This document shows positions 1 to 8,650 of a DNA stretch of 64,000 nucleotides, in pieces. The notes under the pieces are model-generated. The model was not told the origin of the DNA and made no database searches. It saw nothing but the letters and a program-made list of their open reading frames with translations. Source of the DNA: Acidobacteriota bacterium (GTDB lineage Bacteria; Acidobacteriota; JAAYUB01); the NCBI GenBank assembly GCA_040768985.1, contig JAXGLX010000002.1, positions 4,485,871 through 4,549,870 on the forward strand. The letters run 5' to 3'. Numbering within the stretch: position 1 is the stretch's first letter; every line of letters begins with the position of its first letter. The position numbers and the translations under genes were made by a program.

Positions 1-2346
1 GTCGTCGGGATTGATCTCGAGCATCCCTTCCGTCAGGAGCATCCGGGATCCCTCCACCCAGACGGACAGGGGGAACCCGCGATGAGAATGCTCCACAGCG
101 GAAACCGTCAACAGGTACGTTCCCCGTTCGGCAGTCACAGCCGCTATCCCCGCCTCACCGCTTCTGCCGGTGTCCGCCATCCGGCCGTGCCACCGGAACG
201 GGGCGGGATCACGACGGGCCAGGCCGGCCTCCCGGTGATACGCGCCGATGAACCGGCCCATTTCCGCGCGGATCTCTTCCACGTTCCTGAATTCAAAGCC
301 GACGGCGCCCATCCGACGGGCAATGCGGCAGAGAATCTCCCAATCCGGCAAAGCATTGCCGGGAGGTGGGACGGCCCGCCGGACCATCTGCACCCGGCCC
401 TCACCGTTGATGAAGGTTCCGTCGGATTCGGTGGCCGCCGCCGCCGGCAGCACCAGGTCTGCGGTGCAATAGGGCTCCGGCGGGTAGATGTTCTGGAAAA
501 TCAGGAAATCGGCCGGGACTTGCGGCGCGGGGGGCAGCTCGCCCAGCAGGTACAACACCCGGCTCCGCTGTCCGGCCCAGAGCCGCCAGGCGTTCCAACT
601 CCCGTCCGCGGGCGCCAGGGGCACCCCCCAGATCTGTTCCGCGAGCCGGCGTTGCGCGTCGTCGTCCAGCGGCACGCCGCCTGGGAGAACCTCCGGGTAG
701 GCGCCGGCCATCAGCGAACCGACCAGGTTGTTTTGCGCCGGCAGGGGCATGAACCGGGCTCCGGTGGCGTCGGCCAGCTCGGTCAGGATCGCGAGGATTT
801 CCGCCGCCCCGTCGCACTGCATGAACTCGGAGCCGACCAGGATCACGGTGCGTTTGGATTCCCGCAGCAGCCGGGCGGCCTCACCGAGGTCGCTGTCCCG
901 GCCGGCGGCGCTCGCCCCGGCCGGAGCCGCAGCCGCCGGCTGGACGCGGTCCAGCAGGCTGCGGAGCAGGCCGGCTTCGCCGCCCGACGGCGGTTGCAGC
1001 CAGATCTGGGCGAGCAGGCTGTAGCTGTGGCGATGCGGATTCACGGTGATGAGGCGGATCCCCTGCTTGAGCGCCCGCCGCAGGGCCACCCCGACCACCG
1101 AGCGTCCGAAGCGGGAATCCAGACCCACGGCCAGGATGACCTCGGCCGCGGACAGGGCCGACAGCGGCACGCTCCGGCCCAGGAGGCGGAGGTAGGGGTC
1201 GAACGCCGGCCCGTAGAAGATCCGGGCCGTGGTGTCCACCTGGTGGGAGCGCATGACCACCCGGGCGAACTTCTGGGCGACGTACAGGTCCTCGGTGCAG
1301 CAGTTGGTGGATGCCAGCAGGGCGAACTCCTCCGGCGGACAGGCGGCGAGCTTCTCGGCCATCAGCGCGGTGGCCTGGTCCCAGGAGATTTCCGTGGGGA
1401 TCGAGCCGTAGCGGGCATAGGGGTTCCGGAGCCGCCGGTAGCCGCTGACCAGCTCCGTGTTGCAGAAGCGCCCCTTGACGCAGAGCTGCCCCTGGTTCAC
1501 CACGGGATCGTCGGCGGGCAGGCTGCCGATGACCCGTTCGTCCTTCACCAGCAGCCGGAGCTGACAGCCCACGCCGCAGAACGAGCAGGTGGTGGTCTCC
1601 TCCCGGTCGGGCTTGCCCTCCCAGGCCCGGGCTTTCTCGCGCAGGGCGCCGGTCGGGCACACCGCCACGCAGGCGCCGCAGAACTCGCAGCCGCCCGCCA
1701 TGTGGGTGCGGTGGAAGGCCGGCCCGATGATGGTGTTGCGCCCGCGGTTCTTGTACGCCAGCACGTTGGCGGTCCGGACCTCCTGGCACATCCGGACACA
1801 CCGCCCGCAGAGGATGCACAGGTTGTAATCGCGGTCGTAGAAGGGATCCTCCGTCTCCACCCGGAGGTTGCGGTAGTAGATCGGGTGATCGATGCGGTCG
1901 ATGCCCATGGATTCCGCCACCGCCTGCAGCTCGCACAGCGTGTCCTTGGGGCAGTACCGGCAGCCCGTGGTGACCCCGGACTTGCGGATGGTGGGCATGA
2001 ACTCCTTGCACTCGGCCTTCTCGTCGCAGACCAGGCAGCTGGAGGTGTGCTCCGTCAGGAAGAGCTGCAGGATGTCCCGGCGCATGGCCTCGATCTGCGC
2101 GGTCCGGGTGCGCACGATCATCCCCTCTTCCACCGGGGTGGTGCAGGCGGTCGGAAAGGTGCGCACCCCTTCGACCTCGACGATGCACATGCGGCATCCG
2201 CCGTGCGCCGACAGGCCGTCGAGGTAGCACAGGGTGGGTATCTCGATGCCATGGGCGCGGGCCGCCTCCAGAATCGTGGCGCCCCGGGCGGCCGTGATCG
2301 TCCGATTGTCAATGCTCAACGTGATGGGAATCTGCTCGGTGCTCAC
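1..2346 (-). CDS. NuoG-like Fe-S / molybdopterin-oxidoreductase-family subunit, partial (C-terminus beyond window start); GTG start overlapping the NuoF-like stop
   Basis: Own reverse-complement translation of frame 0 runs open from 2346 to position 1: N-terminal 2Fe-2S motif (C-x10-C-x2-C), His-ligated cluster HTSSCLVCDEKAEC, two ferredoxin-type CxxCxxCxxxCP motifs, then MopB-type TTCSFCGVGCQL...C. Not in the ORF track because it has no stop in the window. Confidence 0.75.
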   Translation of the reverse strand, partial: MSTEQIPITLSIDNRTITAARGATILEAARAHGIEIPTLCYLDGLSAHGGCRMCIVEVEGVRTFPTACTTPVEEGMIVRTRTAQIEAMRRDILQLFLTEHTSSCLVCDEKAECKEFMPTIRKSGVTTGCRYCPKDTLCELQAVAESMGIDRIDHPIYYRNLRVETEDPFYDRDYNLCILCGRCVRMCQEVRTANVLAYKNRGRNTIIGPAFHRTHMAGGCEFCGACVAVCPTGALREKARAWEGKPDREETTTCSFCGVGCQLRLLVKDERVIGSLPADDPVVNQGQLCVKGRFCNTELVSGYRRLRNPYARYGSIPTEISWDQATALMAEKLAACPPEEFALLASTNCCTEDLYVAQKFARVVMRSHQVDTTARIFYGPAFDPYLRLLGRSVPLSALSAAEVILAVGLDSRFGRSVVGVALRRALKQGIRLITVNPHRHSYSLLAQIWLQPPSGGEAGLLRSLLDRVQPAAAAPAGASAAGRDSDLGEAARLLRESKRTVILVGSEFMQCDGAAEILAILTELADATGARFMPLPAQNNLVGSLMAGAYPEVLPGGVPLDDDAQRRLAEQIWGVPLAPADGSWNAWRLWAGQRSRVLYLLGELPPAPQVPADFLIFQNIYPPEPYCTADLVLPAAAATESDGTFINGEGRVQMVRRAVPPPGNALPDWEILCRIARRMGAVGFEFRNVEEIRAEMGRFIGAYHREAGLARRDPAPFRWHGRMADTGRSGEAGIAAVTAERGTYLLTVSAVEHSHRGFPLSVWVEGSRMLLTEGMLEINPDD

Positions 2347-4232
2347 TGTTCACTCCGCCTGGACTCGAAAATGACGGCGTTGCCCGCCAATTGGTCGTAT
2401 CGGCACACTTCGTAGCAGGCCTTGCATTTGATGCAAAGGGCCAGGTCGATCCGGTGCGCTTCGGACCGCGCCCCGGAGATGGCGTGGGTCGGGCACACCT
2501 CGACGCACCGCTGGCACCCGTTGCAGCGCGCAGGATCAATGCGGTACTCCACCAGTTCCTTGCAGACGGCGGCCGCACAGTGACGCTCTTTGGCGTGCTG
2601 GAGATACTCGGTGCGGAAGTGCCGCAAGGTGGTCAGGACCGGATTGGGCGCGGTCTGGCCCAGTCCGCACAGCGAAGCCCGTTTCACCGTCTCGGCCAGG
2701 TGCTGCAGTTTGGCCAGGTCCTCCGGTTGGCCGCGTCCGGCCACCAGGTCCTCCAGCAGACGGACCATGTGCCAGGTGCCCACCCGGCAGGGGGAGCATT
2801 TGCCGCACGATTCCGCCTGGGTGAAACGAAGGAAGTACAGGGCGAGGTCCACCGCGCAGGTGTCCTCGTCGACCACGATCATGCCGCCTGAGCCCATGAT
2901 GGACCCGGCTTCGGCCATGGCCTCGTAGGCCACCGGCAGGTCGAGAAACTCCTCCGACAGGCAGCCGCCTGAAGGCCCGCCGGTCTGGACCGCCTTGAAC
3001 CGCTTCCAGGATCCGCCCCCGATGTCGAAGACAATCTGGCGCAGCCGGATGCCCAGCGGCACCTCGATCAGGCCCGGCCGCCGGACCTTGCCTACCAGGG
3101 AAAAGGTCTTGGTGCCATAATTGCCTTCCACTCCGAACTGACGGTACCACGCCGCGCCGTTGCGAAGAATATGGGGCAGGGTGCCCAATGTTTCCACGTT
3201 GTTGATGATGGTGGGGTGGCCGTTGAGGCCGGCGATGGCCGGGAAGGGCGGGCGCGAGCGCGGCATGCCCCGGCGGCCTTCGCACGAGGCGATGAGCGCG
3301 GTCTCTTCACCGCACACGAATGCGCCGCCGCCCTCCTTGAGGGTGATGCCGAAGCTGAAATCTGTTCCCAGCACCCGCTCACCCAGCAATCCGTGAGTGG
3401 TCATCTGGGCGATGGCCTGGCGTAACCGGGCGATGGCCAGGTGGTAATCCGAGTTGATGTAGATGTAGCCGTGGCCGGCGCCGATGGCGTACGCCGCGAT
3501 GAGCAGGCCTTCCAGTACGGCATGGGGATCGCCTTCGATGAGCGCCCGGTTCATGAACGCACCCGGATCACCCTCGGAACAGTTGCAGATCACGTACTTG
3601 GTGGTTCCGGCGGCGCCGCGGCAGATCTGCCATTTCCGCCAGGTGGGGAAGCCGGCCCCGCCCCGGCCGCGCAGCCCCGCCTCCTTGACCATACCGATGA
3701 CATCCTCTGGCGTCATCCCGAGCGCCTCATTCAGTCCCGCATAACCGTCATTGGCCAGATAGTGCTCGATGTCCTCGGGGTCGATGAAGCCGCAGTTACG
3801 GAGCACCAGCCGGACCTGGTGACGCATCATCGGCGTGTCAAAAAAGCGCGGCAGCCCGGCAGTGAGCGGATCGCCGTTGGAGCCGAAATGAGCAAAGGCC
3901 AGGTCCGCTGACGGATCGCCGTGCAACAGCAACCGCTCCAGAATCCGTTTCACCCGGGACGGATCCACGTTGGCATACGTGATGCGGGGATGGTTCGGCA
4001 GCCGCACGTCCACGAGCGGCTCCAGGTAGCAGGGGCCGATGCAGCCCACGGGGACCACCCGAGCCTCCACCTGGAGCTCCAGGAGTGTCTGTCGGATGGC
4101 GTGCAGCACATTTCCGGCACCGGCGGCAAGTCCACAGGTGGCGGCACCGACGTAGATGACCGGGACCGGGCTCTCCTCAAGACGGGCCCATTGTTGCCTG
4201 GCGGCAGATTGGATGGTCGAGAAGTTACTCAC
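2343..4232 (-). CDS. NuoF-like NAD(H)-binding flavoprotein subunit (51-kDa-type; HndC/HoxF-like) with C-terminal 2x[4Fe-4S] ferredoxin domain
   Basis: Track ORF; GLRGRGGAGFP NADH/FMN motif, ESCGKCSPCR cluster motif, C-terminal CNGCQRCVEVCP and CIKCKACYEVC motifs. Confidence 0.9.
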   Translation of the reverse strand: MSNFSTIQSAARQQWARLEESPVPVIYVGAATCGLAAGAGNVLHAIRQTLLELQVEARVVPVGCIGPCYLEPLVDVRLPNHPRITYANVDPSRVKRILERLLLHGDPSADLAFAHFGSNGDPLTAGLPRFFDTPMMRHQVRLVLRNCGFIDPEDIEHYLANDGYAGLNEALGMTPEDVIGMVKEAGLRGRGGAGFPTWRKWQICRGAAGTTKYVICNCSEGDPGAFMNRALIEGDPHAVLEGLLIAAYAIGAGHGYIYINSDYHLAIARLRQAIAQMTTHGLLGERVLGTDFSFGITLKEGGGAFVCGEETALIASCEGRRGMPRSRPPFPAIAGLNGHPTIINNVETLGTLPHILRNGAAWYRQFGVEGNYGTKTFSLVGKVRRPGLIEVPLGIRLRQIVFDIGGGSWKRFKAVQTGGPSGGCLSEEFLDLPVAYEAMAEAGSIMGSGGMIVVDEDTCAVDLALYFLRFTQAESCGKCSPCRVGTWHMVRLLEDLVAGRGQPEDLAKLQHLAETVKRASLCGLGQTAPNPVLTTLRHFRTEYLQHAKERHCAAAVCKELVEYRIDPARCNGCQRCVEVCPTHAISGARSEAHRIDLALCIKCKACYEVCRYDQLAGNAVIFESRRSEQ

Positions 4233-4713
4233 GGTTTTGCAAGATCTCCTTCAGCTGGGTGACCATTGTCCGGGCGTGGATCTTCTCGTTGACTTGGACC
4301 ACCGGGGCCAGCGCACAGCACCCCAGGCAGTTGACTCGCTGAAAATCGAATGCTTTGTCTTTGGTGGACTGTCCCACGGTGATGCCGAGTTGCCAACCGA
4401 GGGTGTCGCTCAGAAATCCGCCACCGTGGACGTGGCAGGCGGTACCCATGCACACCTTGATGGACTTCCGGCCAGGCTCGTCGAAGCGGAACTTTGAAAA
4501 AAATGAGGCCACCCCGAAGATCTGGTTTTCGGACAGGCGCAGAAACTGCGAGATCCGCCGCACCGATTCCTCGGAAATGTAGCCGAACGTTTCCTGCACC
4601 CGGACCAGAATGGAAATCAGCTCCCCCTCCTGGCCCTTGAACTGCTGGAAGAGGTCATGGTAATCCCGCGGGTCGGTGCCGGCGCCGGCCTCCGGGGTGT
4701 CGAGTGGATTCAT
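4225..4713 (-). CDS. NuoE-like 2Fe-2S thioredoxin-fold subunit (24-kDa-type; HndA/HoxE-like)
   Basis: Track ORF 162 aa; Cys motifs CMGTACHV and CLGCCALAP; 8-nt overlap with the NuoF-like start suggests translational coupling. Confidence 0.85.
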   Translation of the reverse strand: MNPLDTPEAGAGTDPRDYHDLFQQFKGQEGELISILVRVQETFGYISEESVRRISQFLRLSENQIFGVASFFSKFRFDEPGRKSIKVCMGTACHVHGGGFLSDTLGWQLGITVGQSTKDKAFDFQRVNCLGCCALAPVVQVNEKIHARTMVTQLKEILQNRE

Positions 4714-5988
4714 TCAGTCATCCTCGCTTTGTTGGACTCGGTTCAGGTGGATACAGTCGGTGAGCTTCACTTCGCCCCGCACAAAATCCTCCGCAAAGGC
4801 CATGCAGGTGGGCGATCCGCAACATCCGCAATCGATTTGTTTCAGTTTTTGATAGACGCGCTCCCGCTCTTTCATCCGCTTGATGGACGTCTCCAGGTCC
4901 GTGTCGAAGTAGCGGATCGGACGCGGCATGATCGGATACTCGATGGTGAAATATCCTGCCTGCATCTTCTGCTCGATGTCGTGGGTGTCGATCTCGATCC
5001 GCTCCTGATACTTTTCACCCTGTCGCAGGGCATTGACTCGGGCGATGTACGGGTTTTCCACGTTGAAGGTGCCGCCGACGCAGCCCAGCATGTGGGCCGA
5101 CGCCTCGATGAAGGTGACATTGCGCAAGCGGGAGTTCTCGATGTCGTCCAAAATTTGCATGACGTGGTCCAGACCCGCAATCACCAGCCAGTTCTCCCGC
5201 TCCGCCGCCCGGGTCAAGCTGCCCGACGTGACCCACTCCGAGTTGAACGAGAAATTCTCCGGCACCTGCTTCACGTCGAATTCCTTGTGGATGGCCATCA
5301 CGTGAGGCATGATGATGGAGTAGATCCCGCGCACCGACACCACGCCGTCGAACCAGGATTTATTCTTTTCAGCCGGCTGCTGAACGGAGGCGATCTTCGC
5401 CGGACAGGTGGCCACATAAAACACGCCGATCTCCTCGGCGGTGAGGCCCAACTGTTCGGGCAGGTCCTTTTTGATTTCCCGGGCCGTGATTTCACGCGGC
5501 ACTTCCATGGGGACGATCAGCTCCACCAGGTCGGGAAATTTCACCTGGATGAGCCGAACCACGCATGGGCAATAGGACGCGATCAGTGGCAGGCGGCCGC
5601 GGTATTCCTTGAGGTACAGTTCCAGCGCCTTGGCCAGGGCCACCGTGGAGGTATGCACGTCGATCACGCTGTCGAAACCGATTTCCTTTAGCGCCAGGTG
5701 AATCACGTAGGGGTGGATGTGGGCGTCGAACTGGGCGTACAAGACGGGGGACGGCACGATGACCTTGTGCCGGAAGTGGGAGAGTCCATTGACCATGTCA
5801 CTGTCGACAACAATGGCGTTTTCCGGACAGATGCCGATGCAGTTGCCGCAGTCGACGCAGAATTCGTCCGAGATGACCGCTTTGCCGTTGCGCACCCGGA
5901 TGGCCTGAGTGGGGCAGATGCGCATGCAGGCCATGTGTCCCCGGCATTTCGCCGGGAGGACTCTGTGGGCATGGAAATAGCGGGTCAT
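4714..5988 (-). CDS. Sensory-type (HydS-like) [FeFe]-hydrogenase-like protein: N-terminal 2x[4Fe-4S] ferredoxin, divergent H-cluster domain, C-terminal Cx2Cx4Cx16C motif
   Basis: Track ORF 424 aa; CxxCxxCxxxCP-type motifs at N-terminus; H-cluster-like motifs SYCPCV, ATCPAK, SAHMLGCVGG; C-terminal DCGCCGSPTCMAFAEDFVRGEVKLTDC. Confidence 0.7.
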   Translation of the reverse strand: MTRYFHAHRVLPAKCRGHMACMRICPTQAIRVRNGKAVISDEFCVDCGNCIGICPENAIVVDSDMVNGLSHFRHKVIVPSPVLYAQFDAHIHPYVIHLALKEIGFDSVIDVHTSTVALAKALELYLKEYRGRLPLIASYCPCVVRLIQVKFPDLVELIVPMEVPREITAREIKKDLPEQLGLTAEEIGVFYVATCPAKIASVQQPAEKNKSWFDGVVSVRGIYSIIMPHVMAIHKEFDVKQVPENFSFNSEWVTSGSLTRAAERENWLVIAGLDHVMQILDDIENSRLRNVTFIEASAHMLGCVGGTFNVENPYIARVNALRQGEKYQERIEIDTHDIEQKMQAGYFTIEYPIMPRPIRYFDTDLETSIKRMKERERVYQKLKQIDCGCCGSPTCMAFAEDFVRGEVKLTDCIHLNRVQQSEDD

Positions 5989-6007: not shown

Positions 6008-6820
6008 TCAGGCTGTCGGTGGGCGAATGGAGAATTTCATCCGCAACCGGGTTCCCCGGCCGACCTCACTTTGGAGGTCCAACTCATCCGAATTTCTTTT
6101 GATGTTCGGCAAACCCATGCCCGAGCCGAAACCCATGGCCCGTTGTTCTTCGGTGGCCGTGGTGTACCCCTCCTGCATCGCCTCGGTCACGTCCGGAATG
6201 CCCTTGCCCTCGTCGTCGAGGATCACCTCGATGGCGTTGGGGGTGACCGCCAGGCTCACCTGGGCCCGCTTGGCGTGCATGATCACATTCATCTCACCCT
6301 CGTAGGTGGAGATGGCCACGCGCCGGACGATCGTGGGATCGACCCCGATCTTCTTCAGGATGGATTTCACTTCGGTGGATACCAGACCGGCCCGCGAGAA
6401 ATCGCTCCCTTCGATCAGGAACTGGTTATTCAACAGGATGGACTCGGACGGTGGCGGGATTTCCATGGGCAAACCCGCCAGGCCGGACTCATGGGTCAGG
6501 GTGTAAATCCGGACGCAGCTTTCGTACATGTCCAACTGGGTGGACATCAACACGATGTTGTGTTCCCGGGCGAATCGCTCGGCGCCGTCCTTGGTCTTTT
6601 TGCCACGGATCAGAACAACCCCGCGGAATTCGGCCATGTGAGCGGAGATGACCGACTGCTGGGAGGCGAGACCGGTCAACAGGATGGAGTCCGGTTTTCC
6701 GAACGCGAGCACGTCGCTCATCAGGTCCGAGGCGTAGATTTCCGTGATGTCGGTGGAGAGGAGATCCTCGCGGGCCAGCACGGCGGCTTCCAGCGCGAGT
6801 CTGATGGCATCAATCTTCAT
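6008..6820 (-). CDS. DRTGG-domain protein fused to HATPase_c-type anti-sigma regulatory factor-like Ser/Thr kinase domain
   Basis: Track ORF 270 aa; C-terminal ATPase G-box-like GFGSGMGLPNIKR; N-terminal half resembles DRTGG domain. Confidence 0.65.
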   Translation of the reverse strand: MKIDAIRLALEAAVLAREDLLSTDITEIYASDLMSDVLAFGKPDSILLTGLASQQSVISAHMAEFRGVVLIRGKKTKDGAERFAREHNIVLMSTQLDMYESCVRIYTLTHESGLAGLPMEIPPPSESILLNNQFLIEGSDFSRAGLVSTEVKSILKKIGVDPTIVRRVAISTYEGEMNVIMHAKRAQVSLAVTPNAIEVILDDEGKGIPDVTEAMQEGYTTATEEQRAMGFGSGMGLPNIKRNSDELDLQSEVGRGTRLRMKFSIRPPTA

Positions 6821-6904: not shown

Positions 6905-7240
6905 TTACTTGGCGACGAGTCCGAGCGAGTATAGTTTCCCGACCAGGTCGAAAGTCATCGTGTCAGTAGCGAGGAGGGCAATGTTATGACGGTTGGCCAG
7001 TTCGATGGTTTCCGGTGGGACACTCTTGCCGTTGGGGATGATGACGGCCGCAACATCCACCAGGTTGGCTGCCGGGACGATGCTCTTGTGGGTTTGCACG
7101 GTCACCCAGAGATTGCCGGATTTTGCGCCCGCCATGACATCACTCAGCATGTCGGAGATGAACACGCCGCTGATCTCCCGGTGCTCAAACTGGCTCAACG
7201 GCTTCAGCCCGAGGATGTCGATCACTTCTTTTGTCGTCAT
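6905..7240 (-). CDS. DRTGG-domain protein (small regulatory partner)
   Basis: Track ORF 111 aa; similar in sequence to the N-terminal half of the 6008-6820 product (ISDMLSDVMAG vs ASDLMSDVLAFG). Confidence 0.6.
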   Translation of the reverse strand: MTTKEVIDILGLKPLSQFEHREISGVFISDMLSDVMAGAKSGNLWVTVQTHKSIVPAANLVDVAAVIIPNGKSVPPETIELANRHNIALLATDTMTFDLVGKLYSLGLVAK

Positions 7241-7283
7241 AGTTCAAGCTCCGTGCAAAGATGGATGTTGGTCCCGGTTGCGA

Positions 7284-7826
7284 TTAAAACAACGGCTTTC
7301 GTTCCACCAGCGGCTTCTGCGAGAGCATGCCGACATCATGGATGAACTCACCCCGGCACAGGGCGATCTTCGGGATCCGGTCGAAGGAAATGAATCGGAC
7401 GGTGGACCGCGAGGTGTCGCGGCGCTGGTTGAAATACGCGCCGAGTATGTCCAGCCGCCTCTTGCTGATCGGGGTCCGCAGCCCGTCCGGCAGGTTGGAA
7501 AAGGCGACCAGGATCCAGGTCCGCTTTTTCTCCGCCCGCTTGCGGATTTTCTCCACAGCGCAATCGGGCAGGCAGGAGGTGCAGTACATCAGTCCCAGCA
7601 GGTCTTGGAAACTTTCACGCCGCTGGCAGAGCGCGCACTCGAGGTTGAAGCGGATGGTCTGGGCGTTCTCGACGATGCTCCAGGTGCAGTCTCCTTCCTT
7701 GTACTGATCCCACGTGTCCTGGGTGGAAAAGTAGGTCCGGAGTTCCTGGCAATGGGAGCAACGCTCGAAGACCGAGAAACCGAACTGGACGTCCACCATT
7801 TTCCACGCATGCTGGCAATGTGACAT
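7284..7826 (-). CDS. Cys-rich zinc-ribbon-like hypothetical protein (start moved to internal Met MSHCQ)
   Basis: Track ORF 7284-7877; CxxC pairs (CSHCQ, CALCQ, CTSC) plus further Cys/His; first gene of the minus-strand cluster. Confidence 0.45.
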   Translation of the reverse strand: MSHCQHAWKMVDVQFGFSVFERCSHCQELRTYFSTQDTWDQYKEGDCTWSIVENAQTIRFNLECALCQRRESFQDLLGLMYCTSCLPDCAVEKIRKRAEKKRTWILVAFSNLPDGLRTPISKRRLDILGAYFNQRRDTSRSTVRFISFDRIPKIALCRGEFIHDVGMLSQKPLVERKPLF

Positions 7827-8289
7827 CAGTGCACACCTGATAACAAAATAACAAGCCAGGCCTGCCGCCTGATCCAATGTGCGTACAAGAATGACCGGAA
7901 CAGTCTGAGTCAGGTTAATTCAGCAATACCGCGATGTCAAGGGATTGTTGCCGGAATCCAGGTTCGTCGGCACGCCGGGCGATGAAACAGAACGGTGCCT
8001 CCGACCCGAATCGCCGCGCTCGGATGGCCGGAATCAGCGGAGTTGCGGCGTTAATGAACGAGTCACAGCCGGAGCATGGTCGGTTGATGATCAATCCCAT
8101 GCTGAAATCCTGTTCGACCCGCCGCGTGCCGTGGGTCGCCGGGAGGGACGCCTGAAGGTTGTGCGTGGCCCAGGTGCGCACGGTACGGGGGGGGCGACGG
8201 GCCCATCCATCACCACGCCGACTGTTTGGTTCCGGCTCCGCCGGGTTGGGATTACGAATCAGGATGACGCGCTCGAACCATCAACGACC

Positions 8290-8650
8290 AACTATCCGCG
8301 ATACTGTGAACCTGTGAATCCGTGAACATTCCAACGTTCGAACATTCAAACGGCTCCATTACGAACACGATCACGATTACGGATTACGAGCTGGAACCAT
8401 CAACTCTCAATGAGCGGAAACGAGCCTCGAGCCTCGAGTCTCTAGCCTCGATTACGATCACGATTACGAATTACGATTACGAATCTCGATTACGATTACG
8501 AATCACGAGCACGAGCCATCAACTCTCAATGAGCGGAAACGAGCCTCTAGCCTCGAGCCTCTAGCCTCGATTACGATCACGATTACGAATCTCGATTACG
8601 ATTACGAATCACGAGCACGAGCCATCAACGATCAACCATCAACGATCAAC
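8290..8650. repeat. Minisatellite array: two tandem ~105-120-bp units (approx 8397-8515 and 8516-8620) built from GATTACGA / CACGAGCACGAG / CCATCAAC / GAGCCTCTAGCCTCGAG submotifs, plus flanking partial units
   Basis: Direct reading: unit ccatcaactctcaatgagcggaaacgagcctc[g/t]agcctcgag...cgattacgatcacgattacgaat...cacgagcacgag occurs twice in tandem; second unit lacks one 13-nt tacgattacgaat subunit. Confidence 0.8.

Follow-up and report, generated by a model that had tools for sequence, protein, structure and literature searches.

A cysteine-rich orphan protein family encoded at the head of a DRTGG, kinase and HydS-like gene cassette in Acidobacteriota and other phyla

We analysed a stretch of 64,000 nucleotides from an Acidobacteriota bacterium (GTDB lineage Bacteria; Acidobacteriota; JAAYUB01; GenBank assembly GCA_040768985.1, contig JAXGLX010000002.1, positions 4,485,871 to 4,549,870 of the forward strand), hereafter called the window, and in it a gene for a small cysteine-rich protein, which we call X. 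Judged by homology searches, X is a compact, previously undescribed orphan family. Its synteny and conservation point to a non-enzymatic subunit, obligatory in a sensory module of four genes, that serves as an adaptor or switch, a reading to which we give about even chances of being right. The module would consist of X, a DRTGG protein, a GHKL Ser/Thr kinase that carries a DRTGG domain and a group-D-like sensory [FeFe]-hydrogenase homologue (HydS-like), and it would head, and presumably control, the operon that encodes an NAD(P)H-ferredoxin oxidoreductase of NuoEFG/NfnAB-like (Bfu/Nfn) type. The cassette of a sensory hydrogenase and a kinase is known; what is new is its undescribed first component, X, whose fold is unmatched in the PDB.

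Results

X is a conserved gene of an undescribed family

The gene is the following feature of the window.

7284 to 7826, including the stop codon, minus strand: gene X, encoding a 180-aa orphan Cys-rich protein (open reading frame and translation, homologues, substitution ratios and AlphaFold2 model)

The open reading frame (ORF) of X starts with an ATG at 7826 and ends with a stop codon at 7284–7286. A sequence-only reading of the window had placed a protein of about 180 aa at the same coordinates, which is correct, with the gene on the minus strand. The protein has 10 Cys (positions 4, 23, 26, 47, 64, 67, 82, 85, 89 and 157). That reading had counted at least three CxxC pairs within the N-terminal 100 residues, and the translation contains three, all of them there: C23-SH-C26, C64-AL-C67 and C82-TS-C85. 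Its description of the C-terminal domain as free of Cys does not hold, as C157 is present and is kept in 104 of 105 aligned homologues.

With a word-seeded HMMER search, 219 homologues of about 180 aa and 52–93% identity were retrieved from 5.8 billion proteins, all unnamed or labelled 'hypothetical' and none with a Pfam domain. A longer, TTG-initiated ORF from 7877 was ruled out, since every homologue begins at the equivalent Met. The ratio of nonsynonymous to synonymous substitutions (dN/dS) was 0.16–0.21 against three relatives (Nei-Gojobori), which indicates that X is under purifying selection. Because of the 219 homologues, the shared start Met and the dN/dS values, we conclude that X is a real gene and not a chance ORF of a GC-rich genome. 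In favour of a chance, unexpressed frame in GC-rich DNA, the region does hold many overlapping spurious ORFs on both strands. Against this stand the homologues across phyla with equal length and start, the low dN/dS, a confident predicted fold and the conserved operon position and spacing; conservation already refutes this explanation, and we give it virtually no chance. The same homologues and dN/dS values speak against the concern, raised in the sequence-only reading, that the ORF might be unexpressed or without homologues.

No recognised family had been named for X, and none emerged. Searching X against Pfam-A 2025 and NCBIfam 20.0 gave no family at E ≤ 0.1, and a profile of the X family against all PDB sequences gave only noise at E ≥ 0.2 (V-ATPase G, S27 and Fur; E 0.97 for S27). 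Against 1.84 billion cluster representatives, the profile found 75 clusters at E ≤ 1e-3, almost all of them proteins of 175–185 aa or fragments, and none with X fused to another domain. A Pfam scan of all 105 aligned homologues returned sub-threshold matches only, to models of zinc-ribbon type. DUF5816 was matched in 58 of the 105 (best E 0.015), the others being Zn_ribbon_RRN7/TFIIB, Ribosomal_S27e and Zn_ribbon_IS1595, and the individual models ranged over 5–58 members. The zinc-ribbon-type character that had been read from the sequence holds for the CxxC knuckles, and these sub-threshold matches are the only Pfam signals. Enzyme-like matches were absent from every library searched (Pfam, NCBIfam, PDB sequences, and PDB and BFVD by Foldseek). 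The search by profile hidden Markov models and by structure that had been proposed as a check was therefore productive for homologues, 219 of them, and fruitless for a described family or fold; PDB sequences and Foldseek yielded no significant match.

X heads a conserved same-strand gene cassette

The gene context of X was determined at 76 loci from a pattern scan, one genome per GTDB species, all of them metagenome-assembled genomes (MAGs) or single-amplified genomes (SAGs). Gene order at each locus was established by tblastn with the window proteins, and the denominators below are the loci with enough DNA. The 76 species span at least 10 phyla; the loci are from Zixibacteria, Ignavibacteria, Acidobacteriota, Calditrichota, KSB1, Bacteroidota, Latescibacterota, Krumholzibacteriota, Gemmatimonadota, Verrucomicrobiota, Anaerolineae, Myxococcales and Chromatiales.

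A single order on one strand was found: X, DRTGG, DRTGG-GHKL kinase, HydS-like, NuoE, NuoF, NuoG-like and NfnAB-like. Downstream of X, the DRTGG protein was present at 73 of 74 loci (the sole 'miss' being a frameshifted gene), the DRTGG-HATPase kinase at 72 of 72, the HydS-like protein at 65 of 67, NuoE at 61 of 66, NuoF at 56 of 61 and the NuoG-like protein at 49 of 54. In a reverse check that started from two kinase homologues picked independently of X, a 183-aa X homologue with 54–56% identity lay two genes upstream of the kinase in all four places examined. A search with the kinase for distant cassettes that lack X yielded close homologues in its top 120 matches. The co-occurrence with DRTGG, HATPase and HydS-like genes that had been suggested for testing is thus almost absolute at the loci analysed. 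X stays with the DRTGG, kinase and HydS-like genes when NuoEFG is absent (loci L002 and L045) or on the opposite strand (L051). The distance from the X stop codon to the DRTGG start is 40–47 nt in 57 of 74 loci from more than 10 phyla, and the spacer contains no conserved RNA or operator element, only the AGGAG ribosome-binding site being conserved in sequence. X had also been taken as the first gene of the cassette, which is consistent with the distance of more than 850 nt, through intergenic DNA full of repeats, to the next upstream gene.

The cassette features in the window, all on the minus strand, are as follows.

7241 to 7283, minus strand: spacer between X and the DRTGG gene, 43 nt, with a GGAG ribosome-binding site (distance measured at 74 loci)
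6905 to 7240, minus strand: DRTGG single-domain protein, 111 aa (Pfam DRTGG below threshold, E 3.7e-5)
6008 to 6820, minus strand: DRTGG plus HATPase_c_2 protein, a GHKL Ser/Thr kinase like RsbT, RsbW and SpoIIAB, 270 aa (Pfam, NCBIfam)
4714 to 5988, minus strand: HydS-like protein, 424 aa (Pfam Fer4, Fe_hyd_lg_C and FeS)
4225 to 4713, minus strand: NuoE/HydC-like [2Fe-2S] subunit (Pfam 2Fe-2S_thioredx, E 2.5e-39)
2343 to 4232, minus strand: NuoF/HydB-like FMN and NAD(H) subunit (Pfam Complex1_51K and NADH_4Fe-4S)
1 to 2346, cut off by the window start, minus strand: NuoG-like subunit with a molybdopterin-type domain (translation, Pfam)

The N-box, G1 and G2 (ATP-binding) residues of the kinase are invariant, and the enzyme looks active. 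The HydS-like protein has an N-terminal domain with two [4Fe-4S] clusters, an [FeFe]-hydrogenase H-domain and a C-terminal [4Fe-4S] 'FeS' domain, which is the M2e or group D architecture. The equivalents of its H-cluster Cys (C140, C195 and C303) are invariant in 67 sequences, whereas at position 299 Cys is found in 45 of the 67 and His in the other 22. The window protein is among the latter, the first Cys of its H-cluster motif L3 being His (EASAHMLGC). At the position matching the L1 proton-transfer Cys, the HydS-like protein appears to have Tyr (SYCPC).

The sequence-only reading had called the cassette a hydrogenase regulatory cassette, which does not fit the downstream enzyme. The NuoG-like protein has no H-domain, and genes for NfnA-like and NfnB-like proteins end the operon outside the window, as seen on contigs that carry an identical X protein. 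A stretch 'ARIFYGP' in the NuoG-like protein presumably lacks the catalytic Cys/Sec-His pair of formate dehydrogenases. Because NuoG-like and NfnAB-like genes follow NuoE and NuoF, the enzyme is an oxidoreductase related to the Bfu/Nfn/Stn type and not a hydrogenase. Background on such enzymes is given in PMC9304861, PMC11829005 and PMC7483475.

At three loci on Zixibacteria chromosomes the cassette looks decayed, with X and the DRTGG gene intact. In L001 and L007 the kinase gene call is truncated and the HydS-like gene retains only its first 53 residues, followed by a tetratricopeptide repeat gene; in L013 the kinase match ends at residue 227 and a HydS-like match was not found.

X is predicted to have an unmatched two-domain fold

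An AlphaFold2 (AF2) model of X was built with the 105-sequence alignment and reached a predicted local distance difference test score (pLDDT) of 85.5 and a predicted template modelling score (pTM) of 0.78. The following parts of X were distinguished.

7560 to 7826, minus strand: N-terminal all-β domain, aa 1–89 (AF2 secondary structure, ligand conservation and co-loss)
7335 to 7559, minus strand: C-terminal α/β domain, aa 90–164, with C157 and D164 (AF2, conservation)
7404 to 7433, minus strand: near-invariant basic loop F132-N-Q-R-R-D-T-S-R-S141 (column counts in 105 homologues)
7287 to 7334, minus strand: C-terminal tail, aa 165–180, consensus GMLSxEPPxERKPLF (pLDDT, column conservation)

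In the model, the N-domain has two very long strands (8–23 and 47–64) and short hairpins (29–34, 41–44, 70–72 and 76–81), and the C-domain has a helix (90–99), a strand (103–110), a second helix (122–134) and a second strand (142–147). In the basic loop, F, N and R136 occur in all 105 homologues, D137 and S141 in 104 and T138 in 101; F132, N133 and R135 are retained in all clades of the family. We regard this FNQRRDTSRS loop as a candidate docking or phospho-acceptor loop. Residues 165–180 have a pLDDT below 50 yet 80–100% column conservation, which makes the predicted-disordered tail a candidate short linear docking motif. Across all clades, G16, E21, Y42, W49, Q56, F60 and L128 are invariant, and F33, G45, G78, A108, F132, N133, R135, G159, D164 and G166 nearly so. 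The family is acidic (median isoelectric point 5.8, N-domain charge about −6, median C-domain charge +2), whereas the C-domain of the window protein is basic (+10).

Foldseek searches of two models against the PDB and one against BFVD gave no match at E ≤ 0.001. The best non-significant neighbours of the N-domain were Thermotoga maritima NusG domain II and MCM N-terminal domains, and those of a Cys-less homologue (see below) were the hybrid tandem Tudor domains of KDM4A/B/C (E 0.036–0.1). The hybrid tandem Tudor domains and NusG domain II share with X two long β-strands that join two small β lobes, over about 85 aligned columns and with a Foldseek probability of 0.8–0.98. However, the E-values are 0.036–0.2, the TM score does not exceed 0.41 even with normalisation to the small target, the root-mean-square deviation is 4–5 Å and the identity is 7–13%. 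The models therefore place this resemblance at the level of topology, without support for homology or a shared function. The confident model of X thus has a shape without a counterpart in the PDB.

The conserved Cys and His residues probably form three structural Zn sites

Ligand conservation was counted in the 105 homologues of the clade of window X. H6, C23, C64, C82, C85 and C89 are present in all 105, C67 and C157 in 104, C4 and C26 in 103, H25 in 98 and H163 in 93. At position 47, 72 sequences have Cys and 31 have His; alternation of Cys and His at one position is typical of a Zn ligand. Among 242 non-redundant sequences of the X family, ligands are lost in three independent groups. H25, C26 and C/H47 are lost jointly in six sequences that retain all else. 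C4, often H6, C67 and sometimes C64 form another group, and P0257 loses this group only. C82, C85, C89 and C157 are retained in every variant with partial loss.

Because the ligand groups are lost together, X probably has three separable, structural sites. Site A would be formed by C4, H6, C64 and C67, site B by C23, (H25), C26 and C/H47, and site C by C82, C85, C89 and C157, the last of which would tie the β domain to the α/β domain. This scheme fits the predicted bilobal topology plus one inter-domain clamp. That the bound metal is Zn is suggested by the ligand pattern, the swap at position 47 and the modular co-loss. A pairing of C4/H6 with C23/C26 was rejected because the AF2 model puts one pair at each end of a strand of 16 residues, and because of the co-loss patterns.

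We compared these sites with known types of small metal protein. Like zinc ribbons, X has CxxC knuckles at β-hairpin turns: C23xxC26, C64xxC67 and C82xxC85 each follow the end of a predicted β-strand and are conserved in 98–100% of clade members. Unlike them, X has three sites in a larger bilobal β domain plus an α/β domain, its ligands are dispensable in a sister clade, and no match reaches a curated threshold, window X itself having none. The Fe-S motif CxxCxxCxxxC is absent from X and Fer4_9 is matched only below threshold (11 of 105 members, E ≥ 0.043), and a sister clade that retains the predicted fold and the synteny has lost all ligands; by these features X is not of the ferredoxin type. 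The H-x3-C-x2-C motif of ZAS anti-sigma factors is likewise absent from X, and a sigma-factor gene is absent from the operon. HypA resembles X as a small hydrogenase-associated protein with a structural Zn site (CxxC...CxxC), and faint Pfam HypA matches occur in 7 of 105 members (E ≥ 0.29). However, X starts with MSHCQH (consensus M-x-E-C-x-H-x-W) and lacks the Ni-binding MHE N-terminus, and HypA structures are absent among the Foldseek matches of the X models. X has none of the features that define HypA (Ni site, Pfam match and fold).

A sister clade keeps the predicted fold and the gene order without the ligands

The family alignment contains a sister clade (P0277 and 34 relatives) that lacks every Cys and His ligand and has 22–28% identity to window X. 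The model of a Cys-less homologue (pLDDT 83.3, pTM 0.77) has the same order of secondary-structure elements as X. The gene order in this clade is X', DRTGG, DRTGG, HATPase, HydS-like, NuoE, NuoF and fused NuoG/NfnB, as seen on three independent contigs (L083, L088 and L089). Because the Cys-less clade keeps both the predicted fold and the synteny, metal or redox chemistry is not the core function of the family. The Cys-richness of X is a clade-specific structural feature and not its functional core. The earlier proposal that X might be a metal-binding partner consequently fails as an account of its core function.

At the Cys-less loci, the second DRTGG domain and the HATPase are encoded by separate genes, and the NuoG-like and NfnB-like proteins are fused into one of about 1265 aa. 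L088 and L089 have an extra gene of 133 aa without a Pfam match between HydS-like and NuoE.

Region upstream of X

One possible promoter element was noted upstream of X.

7935 to 7940, minus strand: −35-like TTGACA, a weakly indicated possible operon promoter (CTTGAC conserved)

The −35-like CTTGAC lies about 110 nt upstream of X, at the same distance in the window and in its closest relatives, L003 and L004. A strict consensus scan for promoters and terminators near X gave nothing convincing and did not call the TTGACA. No conserved operator was found upstream of X; a Rex-type operator occurs at 2 of 76 loci only and is not general, and the upstream regions are unconserved beyond close relatives.

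Further upstream, Tandem Repeats Finder reported composite tandem repeats at 8358–8650 and 9658–9818, with units CGATTA/CGATCA, CGAGCCTCTAGCCT and AACCATC. At 8358–8614 a unit of 119 nt is present in 2.2 copies, and the same unit types occur past the far side of an ORF of 262 aa, rich in Ala, Pro, Gly and Ser, that lies between the two repeat blocks (8685–9473, minus strand). This ORF is called as a gene, without a Pfam match, on JGI contigs that carry an identical X protein. The JGI samples with an identical X gene include 3300027536, 3300005144 and 3300005252. About 480 nt upstream of X, at 8291–8338 on the minus strand, three TTCAC(A) half-sites follow one another at intervals of about 10 nt (gaatgTTCACggaTTCACaggTTCACagt) and adjoin a 16-nt palindrome (8323–8348). 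These may be a regulator-binding array, which is unconserved outside close relatives.

Discussion

Comparison with sensory hydrogenases and partner switching

Putative sensory [FeFe]-hydrogenases of group D (M2e) have been described near protein kinases and upstream of bifurcating hydrogenases (PMC3561251). The cassette of X is closest to the regulatory cassettes of putative sensory [FeFe]-hydrogenases (group C HydS with PAS; group D/M2e, for example TamHydS), and its HydS-like protein has the M2e architecture. This protein is of HydS type with a C-terminal [4Fe-4S] domain, the kinase gene is the next gene upstream, and the pair precedes NuoE/NuoF-type subunits. The cassette of X differs in that a bifurcating HydABC is not what follows; NuoE, NuoF, NuoG-like and NfnAB-like genes stand in its place and encode an enzyme without a hydrogenase subunit. 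In addition, the kinase is fused to a DRTGG domain, the first L3 Cys of the window HydS-like protein is His, and a protein like X is not mentioned in the literature that we searched on sensory hydrogenase or DRTGG cassettes. A literature search for DRTGG together with hydrogenase found nothing relevant.

In Clostridia, the place of X may be taken by a PHP-domain gene, a possibility that is partly contradicted by PMC3561251, in which Cthe_0335 is listed as the group D hydrogenase.

Partner switching, as in RsbT/RsbS/RsbR, RsbW/RsbV and SpoIIAB/SpoIIAA, also combines an HATPase_c_2 kinase with small single-domain partners. The best NCBIfam match of the cassette kinase is the anti-sigma F factor SpoIIAB (E 8e-15, below the cut-off), and X has a conserved loop that contains Ser and Thr. 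X is encoded beside the HATPase_c_2 kinase (72 of 72 loci); T138 and S141 are 96–99% conserved in its clade, but among divergent members 18 of 24 have Thr or Ser at position 138, and Lys replaces S141. In contrast to partner switching, Pfam and NCBIfam detect no STAS domain, PP2C phosphatase or sigma factor in the cassette, and X has no STAS similarity in sequence (Pfam) or fold (Foldseek matches). The resemblance would be functional, and by analogy only.

Proposed role of X

A regulatory role, which the sequence-only reading had suggested for X, is one that we infer from gene context. X would be a small, soluble, acidic, two-domain protein that acts through protein-protein contacts and not through metal or redox chemistry, with three Zn sites pinning the fold in the clade of the window. 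We favour a non-enzymatic, protein-binding subunit because X has no enzyme or cofactor family match, is acidic, has dispensable metal sites and carries docking-type features. The contacts could involve the surface conserved in all clades (E21, Y42, W49, Q56, N133, R135 and D164), the FNQRRDTSRS loop and the disordered tail, and the most likely partners would be the neighbouring DRTGG protein and the kinase. Because the cassette has an active-looking Ser kinase and lacks a STAS substrate, a PP2C phosphatase and a sigma factor, the most economical specific model would make X, the small DRTGG protein or both the partner or substrate of the kinase. In a narrower version, X would be phosphorylated by the kinase at T138, S139 or S141, which is the role of STAS proteins in RsbT/RsbW/SpoIIAB partner switching. 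Both the identity of the partners and the phosphorylation are suggested by analogy.

Several observations weigh against this proposal. Thr or Ser at position 138 is kept by only 18 of 24 divergent members, and S141 is clade-specific and replaced by Lys in divergent members, both of which weaken the idea of a phospho-acceptor outside this clade. The C-terminal tail is missing from the Cys-less clade and is clade-specific. One very divergent member, P0245 (L086, a 2-kb contig), adjoins a uracil-DNA glycosylase gene and not DRTGG; it has no FNQRR motif and is the sole member of the family seen out of context. All carriers of X are uncultured. Finally, a role in structure or assembly would account equally well for the co-transcription of X and the enzyme genes.

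Such a role, in which X would be a structural subunit or an assembly or maturation factor of the HydS-like protein or of the NuoEFG/NfnAB enzyme and would take no part in signalling, also draws on the frequency with which small Zn-ribbon proteins serve as accessory subunits, on the presence of enzyme genes in the same transcription unit in most genomes and on the faint HypA matches (7 of 105 members, E ≥ 0.29). We consider it unlikely, as X always adjoins the DRTGG and kinase genes, stays with them and the HydS-like gene at loci that lack NuoEFG or carry it on the opposite strand (L002, L045 and L051), and has no Foldseek match to HypA or any maturation factor. A role for the HydS-like protein alone is still conceivable. 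It is decidedly unlikely that X is itself the sensor, with a redox-active Fe-S cluster or a Zn-thiolate switch at its Cys/His sites informing the kinase. Although nine of the 10 Cys are conserved in at least 98% of clade members, C82-x2-C85-x3-C89 and the remote C157 could in principle hold a cluster, weak Fer4 matches are seen (11 of 105, E ≥ 0.043) and the operon concerns redox enzymes, a whole sister clade without the ligands keeps the synteny and the predicted fold. Moreover, members that are normal in other respects have lost single sites. Structural Zn typically shows knuckle patterns of this kind and a Cys/His exchange like that at position 47, and the cassette already holds a dedicated Fe-S sensor, the HydS-like protein.

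We also asked whether X could be the output of the cassette, binding DNA or RNA as a zinc-ribbon transcription factor that autoregulates the operon. Pfam and NCBIfam recognise no DNA-binding protein in the cassette, nucleic-acid binding is frequent among zinc ribbons, the domains with a weak resemblance in fold are β domains associated with nucleic acids (NusG domain II and MCM N-terminal), and the C-domain of window X is basic. However, the family as a whole is acidic (median isoelectric point 5.8, N-domain about −6, median C-domain +2), neither a helix-turn-helix nor any other DNA-binding model matches X, and the upstream regions, unconserved beyond close relatives, hold no conserved operator, with Rex-like sites at 2 of 76 loci. 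Such an output role is very unlikely.

A bolder form of the adaptor reading goes further and is doubtful in our judgement. X would be the missing signal-transducing partner of group-D sensory [FeFe]-hydrogenases in a new partner-switching-like system, in which DRTGG replaces STAS and X serves as the phospho-switch or output that sets the activity or expression of a bifurcating enzyme by H2 or redox state.

Implications

The X family would merit a new Pfam entry, as a domain of unknown function. Its natural Cys-less variants separate the fold from the metal sites. X also marks an uncharacterised NuoEFG/NfnAB-type enzyme that is common in sediment Zixibacteria, Ignavibacteria, Calditrichota and Acidobacteriota.

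Groups C and D of the [FeFe]-hydrogenases comprise putative sensors of H2 or redox state that occur widely, and the relay of their signal is the question on which X bears. For the group D sensory hydrogenase TamHydS (2026), the interaction partners were still to be identified, which was named as a critical next step (PMC13104023). X is a concrete and testable candidate for such a partner, linked to sensor, DRTGG and kinase genes in about 10 phyla and without any other domain context. If the bolder reading is true, X, two DRTGG domains and a GHKL Ser kinase would make up a previously undescribed partner-switching-like system. DRTGG domains would then replace STAS, a Zn-stabilised bilobal β protein would act as the phospho-switch or output, and electron-bifurcating NAD(P)H/ferredoxin enzymes would, through this system, be tuned in activity or expression to H2 or redox state.

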